Assembly: GCA_038143065.1 (NCBI GenBank)
Contig: JAYQLI010000035.1
Location: forward strand, 1,312,894-1,376,893
DNA length: 64,000 nucleotides
Source: Rhodospirillales bacterium
GTDB lineage: Bacteria > Pseudomonadota > Alphaproteobacteria > Bin95
Reading direction: 5' to 3'
Shown here: one piece after another, positions 58,134-61,384 of the stretch
Numbering within the stretch: position 1 is the stretch's first letter
Layout: each line of letters begins with the position of its first letter
Made by a program: the position numbers and the translations under genes
Notes under the pieces: generated by a model
What the model was told of the DNA's origin: nothing
Database searches by the model: none
Seen by the model: only the letters and a program-made list of their open reading frames with translations

Positions 58134-59138
58134 GTGGTAAATTTCATCCGCCAATGGCTGGAAAACCAGTCCCCATATGAATTTATGATGTTTGCGGCAT
58201 TTGCTGTTATGTGTTTCTGGCTGCTAAAACGATTTTCTGCATCACGCATTCAAAATAATCACCTGGACAGAAAACTAACTGAGCTTGAAGAGGCTTTAGA
58301 GGTCCGCCTCAACACTATTGCCTATCAACTTGACATGACTTTCGACAAAAATCGATCGGCTACAGAGGTTGCAGTCGCCGGACTTGCAGAGCGGATAGGC
58401 CGGATTGATGCCGCACAAGCAAATTTAGCCGCCTTGTCTGGGCAAATTACTGGTCTCGAACGCACTCTTAGTGACAAACAGGCGCGCGGTGCTTTTGGCG
58501 AGGCTAGGTTAGGGGACCTCCTTCGCGATGCGCTGCCCGCTAGTGCATTCAAAGAGCAAGCGACACTCTCAAATGGACGAAGAGCAGACGCTTTATTGAT
58601 TTTACCCCATCCACCAGGCTCAATCGCTGTTGATAGTAAATTTCCTCTCGAGAGCTACCGGGCTATTTTAGCTGCAGACAATCCCTCAGCTAAAAATTCT
58701 GCAAGAAAGTCATTTGAACGTGATGTGGCAAAACACATAACTGACATTGCGGACCGATATATTGTCCCAAATGAAACCTCCGATTGCGCATTAATGTTTG
58801 TGCCAAGTGAAGCAGTTTTTGCTGAACTCCACGCGCACTCGTCCTCCGCTGTTGAAGAGGGTTACAGAAAAAGAGTTTTTATCGTCTCGCCAACCACGAT
58901 TTGGGCTCTCTTGAATACAATTCGGGCCATCATGAAAGATGTTCGGATGAAAGAAGAGTCAGTTAAACTTCAGGCCGAAGCGCAGGCATTAGTCACTGAT
59001 GTGGCTGCGATTGCCAGAGCCGCTAAAACAGTGCGGAGACGAATTCAATTGGCTGAAACAGACCTAACGTCTCTCGTTGACTCGGCAAAAACAGCTGAGC
59101 GTCGCGGTGCACGTATCCGCGACATAGACCTAGAATAA
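58134..59138 (+). CDS. rmuC: DNA recombination protein RmuC
   Basis: N-terminal TM, RGAFGE..L, DSKFPLE.Y, MFVPSEAVF, VSPTT. Confidence 0.9.
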   Translation: MVNFIRQWLENQSPYEFMMFAAFAVMCFWLLKRFSASRIQNNHLDRKLTELEEALEVRLNTIAYQLDMTFDKNRSATEVAVAGLAERIGRIDAAQANLAALSGQITGLERTLSDKQARGAFGEARLGDLLRDALPASAFKEQATLSNGRRADALLILPHPPGSIAVDSKFPLESYRAILAADNPSAKNSARKSFERDVAKHITDIADRYIVPNETSDCALMFVPSEAVFAELHAHSSSAVEEGYRKRVFIVSPTTIWALLNTIRAIMKDVRMKEESVKLQAEAQALVTDVAAIARAAKTVRRRIQLAETDLTSLVDSAKTAERRGARIRDIDLE

Positions 59139-59150
59139 AAATGTTTCGCG

Positions 59151-59405
59151 TTAACCATTTACGGCTTTAAAGAACTTCAATCCCATCTTTGACAGAGGAG
59201 GCGCAGGAACAATCTGGCCGCCTATTTCGTCCTCTATATGCCTGACCAACATCTTCCCATACCCCTTACGCCTAAAGGCAGGGTTTACAAAAATGTATTC
59301 TAACACCTTCTGCTCACGGCAAAAACGCGCATAACCAACGGTCGTATTTTTATTTTTAACTGTGATCGCGTCATCAATGATCGACAAAGATATGTCTGGT
59401 TCCAT
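59151..59405 (-). CDS. Minimal GNAT-family N-acetyltransferase (84 aa)
   Basis: VGY, LEYIFVNPAFRRKGYG acetyl-CoA motif A, G.KFF. Confidence 0.8.
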   Translation of the reverse strand: MEPDISLSIIDDAITVKNKNTTVGYARFCREQKVLEYIFVNPAFRRKGYGKMLVRHIEDEIGGQIVPAPPLSKMGLKFFKAVNG

Positions 59406-59411
59406 TGCCCG

Positions 59412-59801
59412 TCACCCGATAGGGTTTTGCACGCCGGCATAATACACTAGCCGACCAACATCATCGTAAATTGGCCTAATGCGCAGTCTATTGAGAAATC
59501 TTACACCGTCTTTTCTATAGTTCACGATATCGATTTCTATACGTGCTTGCGCGGCGATTGCATGACGGATAGCAGCAATCGCATTCTGGTCCGTTTCCGG
59601 GCCTTGCAAAAACTTGCAATTCCTCCCGACAGCATCTTCAGACGAATAGCCTGTTTGTTCTTCAAACTCAGGTGTCACAAAGATGATTGGATTATCTGGA
59701 AGCGATGGATCACTAAACACAACACTTTGACCAGATTCATCATCAGCCAAAAGATCGGCAAGACTGCGCGACAATTCTGTGGCACTAAAATCGGACATCA
59801 T
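59412..59801 (-). CDS. Short stand-alone LOV-domain blue-light photoreceptor
   Basis: SVVFSDPSLPDNPIIFV..F...TGY, GRNCKFLQGPETD (photoactive Cys), NYRKDG, FLNRL, GVQ; AGGAAGG RBS before ATGATG; no effector domain. Confidence 0.93.
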   Translation of the reverse strand: MMSDFSATELSRSLADLLADDESGQSVVFSDPSLPDNPIIFVTPEFEEQTGYSSEDAVGRNCKFLQGPETDQNAIAAIRHAIAAQARIEIDIVNYRKDGVRFLNRLRIRPIYDDVGRLVYYAGVQNPIG

Positions 59802-59826
59802 AACCTTCCTAACCAACACATAATTC

Positions 59827-59852
59827 TACGCGCGCCAAGGGAATTTGGATCA
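59827..59852 (-). promoter_or_regulatory. RpoE (ECF11, sigmaE-ChrR type) promoter
   Basis: Minus strand TGATCC-aaattcccttggcgc(15 nt)-GCGTA, 25 nt upstream of the LOV ATG. Confidence 0.8.
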
Positions 59853-59889
59853 AAATGTCATTGCCAGTTAAAAGAAACCGCAAGCACAT

Positions 59890-61384
59890 TTAGTTCAGAG
59901 AAATTATTTTTACCTTTTTTCCGATTACTAGATCGGAATCTTGGCCAACACCATTCAAGAGCTTAAAGCGATCAACCGCAAATTTACTAACAGCCATTGC
60001 CCGAGAAATACTATCAATTGTATCCCCCTTTTTGACTTTATGAAGGCGAATACGAAGGGGTTTGAGGTTTTCAAGCTCGGCGGGTGACATATGACGGAAC
60101 GAGTATGTAGTTCGCCTATAGCTTTCATTTAGGGCCTTCGTTTCTGCAGGCTCACTGAAAAATGTTAATCGAAATGTGTGCCCTTTCTCACCACGAATTG
60201 CCACAAGCTGGATGTCCATTGAACGGCCATTTACCCTTCCCTTAGTAGACGCTGCTGCGCCTCAAGGCCATTTACTTTTATTGCCTCAAGGCCTTCCAGC
60301 CGAGCATTTCTTGCCCAGGTTTGGCGAATGTAGTCTCGCATAGAGCCACCATAGTTTTGAGGACCCATATCAAAACTAATGGATGCATTTTCCGGGCCAT
60401 AGGCGATGACCCGCTGAGGAGAATTAAAAAGTGTAAAATTATCAGGAACACTGAATAAAAAGTTAAGATTTTTGTGCGCAAAAGTACCATCGCGCGCATA
60501 ACCTTGTTCCGGAGAGTCCCCCATATCATTCCGTCTATCTTGGAAAGATATATATCCCTTCCATCAAGAGGCTTCTCAACTGGGGTTTTCTGAGCAAGCT
60601 TGCGCGCACGCACCACACGATCTGGAGTAGGTGGGTGGGTATCAAGGTAGGAAGAACCTCTCGGAGCCTGACCGCGTAATTTAGCAATTAAACCTTTCTC
60701 AGAATCCAATTTTTCCAAAAACTCGGACATGCCAAATGGGGTAAATCCAATCCGGCCATTATACCTAATGCCAAGCTCGTCCGCCTGATATTCCTGATCC
60801 CGGCTGTATGAAGCCAGGTACCCCTGAGCCCCAACATTTGCCAGCTGTCCTATAGCTCTACCCGCGTCGGGTCCAACAAAGATGGAACCAAGTATCGAAG
60901 CACCCATTGCACCAATGCCGGCAAGAGTTCCTTGTGCTTGTCGCTGCGCCCCATGACGGGCTGTTACGTGACCTATTTCATGCCCAATAACTGCGGCCAG
61001 TTGCCCCTCCGTCTCTGCAAGTGAGAGCAAACCTCGAGTTACATACACATATCCGCCAGGCAGAGCGAAGGCATTGGTAACGTCACTATCAAGAAGCGTG
61101 AATGTCCACTTAATATCAGGCAGCTCAGAGCTTGCAGCAAGAACCTGTCCTAAAGATTTCACATAGCTCTTCAAATCAGGATCATCATATTCGCCGCCAA
61201 ATTGCTTGAGAATCATTGGATGATTTTCGTCACCAATTCGCTTTTCATCATCTTTAGACATGAAAGCAATATCTTTGCCGCCAGTAGCGGGATTACTTGA
61301 ACACCCCGTTAGGCTAAGGCCAATTGCAACCATTCCGAAGGCTATTAAAAAATAGCGGTTCACGCTTGATATCCTTATCCGCAC
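59890..61384 (-). CDS. M48-family metalloprotease lipoprotein with C-terminal LysM; two frameshifts (about 60522 and 60258)
   Basis: LTGC lipobox, NAFALPGG, HEIGH, YSRDQE..AD, THP, VKKGDT..SI...LNG. Confidence 0.9.

Follow-up and report, generated by a model that had tools for sequence, protein, structure and literature searches.

A short LOV photoreceptor gene and a core-only GNAT gene behind an RpoE/ChrR-type promoter motif: a candidate photo-oxidative stress bicistron

Introduction

Short LOV photoreceptors are common, and for most of them no partner is known. The sigmaE/ChrR system, a sigma factor with its anti-sigma that reacts to organic peroxides and to singlet oxygen, is the main bacterial answer to singlet oxygen, and many members of its regulon are still without an assigned role. 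Here we describe a locus in which these two subjects meet, at positions 59151 to 59852 (minus strand) of a 64,000-nucleotide (64-kb) stretch of DNA from a Rhodospirillales bacterium (assembly GCA_038143065.1, contig JAYQLI010000035.1). An RpoE/ChrR-type promoter motif precedes a short LOV gene and, directly downstream, the gene of an 84-amino-acid (aa) protein of the GNAT acetyltransferase family, which we call the mini-GNAT. The whole 64-kb stretch is referred to as the window, and coordinates without a prefix are positions in it; the source genome is G000, other genomes are numbered Gxxx and surveyed loci Lxxx.

The closest described photoreceptor is DsLOV (Dshi_2006) of Dinoroseobacter shibae, whose partner is stated to be unknown (PMC4335406). 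On the regulatory side, TGATCC(N15)GCGTA has been termed a perfectly conserved RpoE promoter (PMC5036791), and TGATCC-N16-CGTA is the consensus given for the Pseudomonas syringae homologue of sigmaE (PMC5507510, Table 3). The bphO-bphP genes carry the motif in P. syringae (PMC5507510), and cryB of Rhodobacter sphaeroides is read by the RpoE-dependent sigma factor RpoHII (PMC3401432); these cases are a precedent for photoreceptor genes in sigmaE-ChrR regulons. A term search in a review of the ECF11 (extracytoplasmic function group 11) family (PMC6852236) returned neither 'acetyltransferase' nor 'LOV'. The first-pass annotation of this DNA, made from the sequence alone, knew of no description of a LOV-acetyltransferase pairing, and in agreement with it we found nothing relevant by title or abstract in open PMC papers and bioRxiv.

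We estimate at about 60% the probability that the LOV and mini-GNAT genes form a stress-induced bicistron of the sigmaE/ChrR (ECF11) type, with the GNAT as a co-induced stress enzyme. Two things are new here, a subfamily of small GNATs linked to a known regulon and a regulatory setting for a DsLOV-type gene.

Results

Organization of the locus

The first-pass annotation had described three same-strand elements within about 700 bp, and all three were confirmed. The promoter motif (59827..59852) matches the RpoE/ChrR (ECF11)-type consensus TGATCC-N16-CGTA exactly: the -35 box TGATCC at 59852-59847 is followed by a 15-nucleotide (nt) spacer and GCGTA at 59831-59827, with CGTA ending 25-28 nt ahead of the LOV ATG. 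Read from the sequence, a Shine-Dalgarno-like AGGAAGG (59804..59810) lies 2 and 5 nt ahead of two ATG codons of the LOV gene (59412..59801, 128-129 aa), which profile and structure-database matches identify as DsLOV-like. The longest open frame of this gene opens at GTG 59819, and the candidate ATG starts are at 59801 and 59798. Since GTG 59819 lies at or before the expected transcript start, and the orthologues in the genomes of sister species (G005 and G008) open at ATG(ATG) followed by S-D/K-F, the start is likely to be ATG 59801 or 59798 rather than the GTG.

The mini-GNAT gene (59151..59405, 84 aa), characterized by Pfam, family alignments, an AlphaFold2 model and Foldseek, begins at ATG 59405, separated from the LOV stop codon (59412-59414) by a spacer of only 6 nt (59406..59411), as had been noted before. 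The sequence GGTGA, which reads as a Shine-Dalgarno-like element for the GNAT, overlaps the LOV stop codon. In G005 the spacer between the two genes measures 2-5 nt.

Conservation of the promoter motif

The exact motif TGATCC-N16-CGTA occurs only once in the whole window, where about 0.12 matches are expected (scaled from the genome-wide expectation). It is conserved in both sister species: the orthologous LOV promoter of G005 retains exact boxes and that of G008 reads TGATCT-N16-CGTA (one mismatch), in both cases around a diverged spacer. An identical motif, including GCGTA, is found 63 nt upstream of chrR in G000, whose product has the H-x3-C-x2-C zinc motif and a Cupin_7 domain. The motif also stands ahead of chrR in G008 and G005, and ahead of the rpoE-chrR locus in 9 of 11 loci from other relatives.

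Among other oriented matches in G000, one lies upstream of a DCC1-like gene, with ferrochelatase next in line, and one upstream of a DUF4864 gene. At the DCC1-like gene the RpoE-type motif is exact (G000:C35:912378-912403; L071:2879-2904) and lies 24 nt ahead of the thiol-disulfide oxidoreductase frame. No sigma gene adjoins chrR in G000, G008 or G005; the nearest ECF sigma factor of G000 is 45-53% identical to the ChrR-linked sigma factors of its relatives. The neighbours of the gene for this sigmaE-like factor are a small membrane-protein gene and a CMD/AhpD-like gene.

Enrichment of the motif at GNAT loci

The neighbourhood of the mini-GNAT was surveyed in 84 loci (L075-L158; 80 metagenome and 4 genome loci; 282,869 bases), the metagenome loci being the best 80 of at least 549 relatives. 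Thirteen exact motifs were found in 10 of the 84 loci, against about 0.24 expected from base composition (83 loci with a GNAT match), an enrichment of ~50-fold. A total of 95 GNAT loci were then divided by guanine-plus-cytosine (GC) content into 29 at or above 0.35 and 66 low-GC, SAR11-like ones. In the 1.5 kb ahead of the GNAT, 11 of the 29 higher-GC loci show a sense motif (up to one mismatch); three of these motifs are exact and eight lie within ~200 nt of the start of the GNAT match. Four more of the 29 carry an exact motif in the opposite orientation. By our own arithmetic, ~0.9 sense matches are expected by chance in these 30,758 bases, so that the enrichment exceeds 10-fold. In a quick tree, the motif-bearing loci are spread over several branches of its non-SAR11 part.

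Behind an exact motif, the GNAT occurs in three operon designs: motif-LOV-GNAT (G000 and G005/L079), motif-small membrane protein-NAD(P)H-binding protein-GNAT (L081) and motif-small open reading frame-GNAT (L118). In L086, L088 and L089, the one-mismatch form TCATCC-N16-CGTA lies upstream of the GNAT, ending ~30 nt ahead of its start codon in L089, and an exact motif precedes a divergent small membrane protein. Stress-related genes lie nearby: in L085 a cryptochrome-related DPRP gene and rpoE-chrR, the latter bearing a motif of its own, a photolyase and DUF3429 in L082, and a ChrR-type double cupin with a Cu/Zn superoxide dismutase (SodC) in L010. Further neighbours are a recurrent NAD_binding_10 gene, pseudoazurin and fasciclin.

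The small membrane proteins form a family with no Pfam match and the conserved pattern N-P-L-R/K...L-S-V-M-W-T/S-T-I-F-C, which recurs beside mini-GNATs or short LOVs (L081:65-484, L086:1-279, L089:2504-2866, L092:649-924, L027:2634-3278 and L028:708-1025). Exact TGATCC-N16-CGTA is found ahead of it in L081, L086, L088, L089, L092 and L027, and the family also occurs near the short LOVs of G004, with an exact motif upstream, and G024.

The SAR11-like mini-GNATs (L011, L017, L091, L136 and ~60 other low-GC metagenome loci) form a clade of 60 rows with support 96 in the quick tree. Many of them share a motif-free arrangement in which the GNAT stands with genes for an ABC transporter, an NAD-dependent epimerase, isocitrate dehydrogenase and an AFG1 ATPase. 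In five Burkholderiales metagenome-assembled genomes (L012, L013, L014, L016 and L018), the mini-GNAT lies downstream of a glyoxalase-like gene, preceded in L012 and L013 by a MerR-family regulator of 341-345 aa. A glyoxalase is among the motif-bearing targets of the P. syringae sigmaE homologue (PMC5507510, Table 3).

The mini-GNAT family

The mini-GNAT scores above the Pfam cut-offs of Acetyltransf_1 (35.2 bits, cut-off 20.7), Acetyltransf_7 (34.2, cut-off 27) and Acetyltransf_10 (30.2, cut-off 23.6), and does not reach the gathering score of Acetyltransf_CG (PF14542; 22.2 bits, cut-off 30), the YjdJ family, which we take to be COG2388. Motif A is present as RRKGYG, as the first-pass annotation had observed, and R45 and G48 vary little or not at all. 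An exhaustive search, superseding a word-indexed protein search that gave just seven relatives, returned 123 cluster representatives at E up to 1e-3, 36 of them at 1e-10 or better and mostly 85-120 aa long. Across a 66-sequence alignment, N20-T21-T22, G24, Y37-x-F39-V40, P42, R45, G48, P70, S72 and G75 are invariant or nearly so, which gives the family three motifs: NTT, EYIFVNP and PPLS-x-x-G. We know of no description of NTT and PPLS-x-x-G. The ratio of nonsynonymous to synonymous substitution rates (dN/dS) between G000 and G008 is 0.35. Because of the 123 representatives, the invariant motifs and this ratio, the mini-GNAT is a real and widespread family, not a gene fragment.

The AlphaFold2 model (mean predicted local distance difference test score, pLDDT, 93) comprises four strands and a helix, followed by a short strand and another helix. 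Foldseek matched it to GNAT/MYST acetyltransferase cores, RibT and the 89-aa YjdJ (E ~1e-3, query-normalised TM-score 0.55-0.66), and the best profile match in the PDB is RibT (1.2e-4; profile positions 16-93, RibT residues 42-118). The protein covers positions 37-87 of the 116 in the Pfam model. A complete GNAT fold runs beta1-alpha1-alpha2-beta2-4-alpha3-beta5-alpha4-beta6/7; by model and alignments the 84-aa protein falls short of it, and in the model it is without the helices at the N-terminus and the strands at the C-terminus that usually form the acceptor site. It is thus a core-only GNAT with a predicted acetyl-CoA-binding core. Natural tandem forms with two and three copies exist, a hint that the mini-GNAT acts as an oligomer.

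One family member (P0077) is fused to a DCC1-like thiol-disulfide oxidoreductase, the kind of gene that also bears the motif in G000. Two others (P0052 and P0119) have unrelated C-terminal domains and are possibly chimeric gene calls; P0082 was rejected as a MOZ/SAS protein. The ESM Atlas gave generic 'GNAT family' clusters only, of 84-93 aa, one of them a viral cluster of similar 87-aa GNATs. GNAT toxins of the TacT/AtaT type are about twice as long and paired with small DNA-binding antitoxins. This identity was rejected for the mini-GNAT, as no profile pointed there.

The short LOV protein

The LOV protein matches PAS_9 (4.1e-15, Pfam) and the NCBIfam model YtvA_fam (1.2e-37 over residues 27-134), and its best solved relative is DsLOV (4kuk/6gay; E ~1e-43, residues 13-127). 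The adduct-cysteine motif GRNCKFLQ is present, and C61, N93, N103 and Q124 are invariant in all nine short LOVs compared (alignment A3); N93 and N103 align with N104 and N114 of DsLOV, residues named in PMC4335406. The protein has an N-cap, is without a J-alpha helix and without an effector, and stops right past the last strand. Pfam finds PAS models only, and the frame ends three residues past ...QNP, in accordance with the earlier description of an effector-less gene. Judged by its sequence, it is a short DsLOV-like photoreceptor without fused output. Because no match to a photosynthetic reaction-centre family was found in G000 (97.6% complete), the photopigment role of DsLOV is unlikely to apply in this bacterium.

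Pairing of LOV and GNAT across genomes

Among 61 relatives (own, genus, family and class), the GNAT is present in five: G000, G008, G005, G003 and G026. The first three share the context M48 peptidase / LOV / GNAT / rmuC / glyA, and the other two have no LOV with the GNAT. Short LOVs are found in eight of the 61 relatives, five of them without the pairing (G004, G022, G024, G037 and G044), where no GNAT was detected near the short LOV or, with this query, anywhere in the genome. In an even sample of the class, 5 of 401 genomes contain the GNAT family, and nine further short-LOV loci in eight genomes (short LOV being taken as an open frame of up to 195 aa) gave neither GNAT nor exact motif in their 1.5-kb flanks. 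Public genome contigs contributed 14 GNAT loci, three of which are relatives already counted.

Among the best 80 of at least 549 metagenome relatives, L079 repeats the arrangement of G005. On the metagenome contigs L080 and L082 the LOV gene is divergent from the GNAT, the LOV being 57% and the GNAT 50-56% identical to those of the window, and L081 has a partial LOV ~1 kb from the GNAT. In an uncultured Rhodospirillaceae metagenome-assembled genome (L008, 2662-2889), only the C-terminal third of the LOV domain stands directly upstream of an intact GNAT, which looks like decay of the LOV gene with retention of the GNAT. No PAS/LOV-GNAT fusion was found by a Pfam scan of the 19 longer members (~136 aa or more) of the 123 representatives. 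Gene neighbourhoods and fusions had been named by the first-pass annotation as places to look for the pairing: adjacency was found in the three sister genomes, fusions were not, and 5/8 and 9/9 of the short LOVs stand without a GNAT. The pairing is real but narrow, and occurs in two gene orders.

The two genes evolve at different rates. Between G000 and G005, identity is 92% for LOV and 55% for GNAT, and the dN/dS of LOV between G000 and G008 is 0.025. The synonymous rate (dS) between G000 and G008 is 0.74 for LOV, 0.18 for GNAT and 0.13 for rmuC, the LOV value being four to six times the other two (59412-59696 versus L002:1-282), and the LOV gene of G008 is divided between two contigs, C87 and C100. 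The high dS and the split gene suggest that recombination has occurred at this gene or that strains are mixed there.

Transcription and flanking genes

Parts of the stretch are contained in 20 public runs from 14 studies of estuary and marine samples, six of them RNA libraries. The LOV-GNAT junction (59405-59412) is bridged by metatranscriptome contigs in all four of four runs, from four studies, with more than 31 letters on each side (X15 record 4; X16 records 10-12; X17 record 18; X18 records 27-28). This bridging is compatible with a single LOV-GNAT transcript and is no proof of one. Neither a sigma70-like site nor an RpoE-type motif (up to one mismatch) occurs within the LOV gene. In the same four of four runs, the summed word depth over 59370-59700 is higher than upstream of 59840; contig depth cannot rank genes. 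In some runs parts of the stretch have no contig cover, and these gaps carry no weight.

Downstream, the convergent rmuC gene (58134..59138, plus strand; PF02646, 1.9e-52) lies 12 nt from the end of the GNAT gene. It bounds the operon on the 3' side, as had been proposed, and is context outside the module; the synteny is the same in G008 and G005. Upstream, a gene for an M48 metalloprotease with a C-terminal LysM domain (59890-61384, minus strand) is broken into three frames (60278-61384, 60231-60524 and 59890-60219). The corresponding gene of G005 is a single 498-aa frame (L007:1024-2520), and contigs of three out of four RNA-library runs have an extra C after 60259; the break in the window is therefore an indel introduced by assembly or else a genuine frameshift. 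No RNA family was found in 58500-60700 (Rfam, E up to 0.1). A scan of 58900-60100 for sigma70 promoters and terminators gave one weak promoter-like site, in the upstream gene region, and no terminators, neither result going beyond shuffled sequences.

Discussion

The first-pass annotation had left two readings of the GNAT, as the output of the LOV protein or as a co-induced photo-oxidative stress enzyme. The second is favoured by the motifs found across the family and by the rpoE-chrR and photolyase neighbours. We propose that stress would free a sigmaE-like factor from ChrR and that transcription would begin at about 59820, the LOV protein being translated from ATG 59798 or 59801 and the GNAT by coupling, 6 nt past the LOV stop. 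The mini-GNAT would be a regulon member in its own right, which probably functions as a homo-oligomer or with another protein and which might, as a guess, acetylate a small molecule or a protein made or damaged under photo-oxidative stress. The LOV gene may have been recruited into this stress-induced unit in one clade; its product would be a blue-light sensor whose amount rises under photo-oxidative stress and which could signal through a partner other than the GNAT.

Several observations weigh against the proposal of a stress-induced bicistron. The sigma factor is the weak point of the promoter case. The sigmaE-like gene of G000 (C35, ~558.9-559.5 kb; L043:1105-1677) does not adjoin chrR, and in this assembly codon 39 is an in-frame TAA; the G008 orthologue reads TAT there and stays open over 190 aa. 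Because G001 has an orthologue of this sigma factor as well as a separate ChrR-linked paralogue, the protein may not be the partner of ChrR. The genome-wide count of the motif in G000 is at chance (24 observed versus 26 expected, N15-17), and therefore the occurrence of the motif alone proves nothing; its weight comes from conservation. In a genome-wide motif scan, no textbook sigmaE target (photolyase, cyclopropane or furan fatty-acid gene) was found behind the motif in G000. The motif is absent from all 66 low-GC SAR11-like loci, whose neighbours are housekeeping genes, and the six Burkholderiales loci are also motif-free. Close kinship within L086/88/89, L084/85 and L097/109 means that the loci do not count as independent; the neighbour hallmarks of a 'stress island' were picked after the data were seen; and the GNAT tree is quick and poorly resolved. 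The RNA-library contigs are without strand, may include DNA, and also bridge GNAT and rmuC. Finally, half of the canonical GNAT fold is missing, and acetyl-CoA binding and activity of the mini-GNAT are only predicted.

That the mini-GNAT is the output of the short LOV, whose light state would bind the core, complete or block the substrate site and so gate acetylation, found no direct support, and we regard it as unlikely. The tight operon with its 6-nt gap, kept in three sister genomes, the divergent adjacency on L080 and L082, which makes for linkage in two arrangements, and the partial LOVs near the GNAT in L008 and L081 speak for it. A partner is plausible for a GNAT without the usual substrate-binding elements, and the DsLOV partner is, as mentioned, stated to be unknown. 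However, the GNAT occurs without LOV in 2 of 5 GNAT-bearing relatives and in most of the 95 loci, and short LOVs have no nearby GNAT in the five relatives listed above or in 9/9 class-sample loci (~1.5 kb). In L008 the LOV is a C-terminal stub beside an intact GNAT frame, a PAS/LOV domain was seen in 0/19 of the longer family members scanned, and the GNAT evolves much faster than the LOV (identity 55% versus 92%, dN/dS 0.35 versus 0.025). Prediction of a complex between LOV (A3) and GNAT (A2) scored 0.00 in both runs with the verdict 'no answer', and was used neither way. Since LOV and GNAT lie side by side in two gene orders, they may still be functionally linked in this clade. A bolder form, in which the core-only GNAT binds no substrate by itself, the LOV supplies the missing substrate face of the GNAT and the two make up a blue-light-gated acetyltransferase produced only under photo-oxidative stress, is decidedly improbable; if true, it would be the first enzymatic partner of a DsLOV-type short LOV, and the two gene orders would reflect selection for the partnership.

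It is likewise improbable that the adjacency is incidental, the GNAT being a small housekeeping acyltransferase downstream of a stress-induced LOV gene and the link to the regulon coming down to a few related islands. Such a view would accommodate the 66 of 95 loci that are motif-free with varied metabolic neighbours, the rare and patchy distribution of the family (5/61 relatives, 5/401 class genomes) and the close kinship of several motif-bearing loci. It is at odds with the motif enrichment (~50-fold for exact matches, more than 10-fold for sense matches at up to one mismatch), with the presence of motif loci on several non-SAR11 branches and in three operon designs, and with the independent link provided by DCC1-like proteins as both fusion partner and motif target. 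Very unlikely, in our judgement, is a non-enzymatic mini-GNAT, an acetyl-CoA- or CoA-binding sensor or regulatory subunit that lost catalysis with its substrate-binding arms. Many GNATs carry a general-acid Tyr in the last helix, and no conserved Tyr is seen there in the A2 consensus; only beta2-beta4, alpha3, beta5 and alpha4 of the fold are present, and a dN/dS of 0.35 is moderately relaxed. Yet motif A and the EYIFV segment of beta4 show strict conservation, the tandem forms with two or three copies suggest that oligomers could build a full site, and there is structural similarity to minimal GNATs of ~90 aa, YjdJ (5i0c) among them.

The core-only GNAT family of ~85 aa, found repeatedly behind sigmaE-type promoters in marine and freshwater Proteobacteria, is a candidate for a new photo-oxidative stress effector and for a minimal acetyl-CoA-binding scaffold. 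A DsLOV-like gene that itself stands behind a stress promoter, in a bacterium that is apparently non-phototrophic, suggests that damage by light increases the sensing of light. Were the GNAT the LOV partner after all, the pair would be of interest as a natural light-switchable enzyme.

In comparison with known systems, the mini-GNAT resembles YjdJ of Escherichia coli (5i0c, 89 aa) and RibT of Bacillus subtilis (5xxr) in size or core, at query-normalised TM-scores of 0.55-0.57. It differs from them in sequence (11-24% identity) and in its own invariant motifs, NTT and PPLS-x-x-G; with YjdJ the similarity is moderate (TM-score 0.57, 11% identity). The promoter has the same consensus as the sigmaE-ChrR (ECF11) regulon of R. 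sphaeroides, Caulobacter and P. syringae, and the same motif upstream of chrR in G000 fits the autoregulation of that regulon. Unlike in those systems, rpoE and chrR are unlinked in G000, and core furan fatty-acid genes were not seen behind the motifs. LdaP (Dshi_1135) is a LOV protein that acts as an antirepressor of PpsR (PMC10890935) and thus signals through a separate bound protein, but it has a histidine-kinase-like domain (PMC4335406), and its partner represses photosynthesis genes, which G000 appears to lack. DsLOV itself is like the LOV protein of the window in its N-cap, its flavin-site residues and the absence of J-alpha helix and effector, and differs in controlling photopigment synthesis in a phototroph (PMC4335406), G000 having given no reaction-centre match. 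Unlike DsLOV as described, the LOV gene of the window stands behind an RpoE-type promoter, with a GNAT gene downstream.

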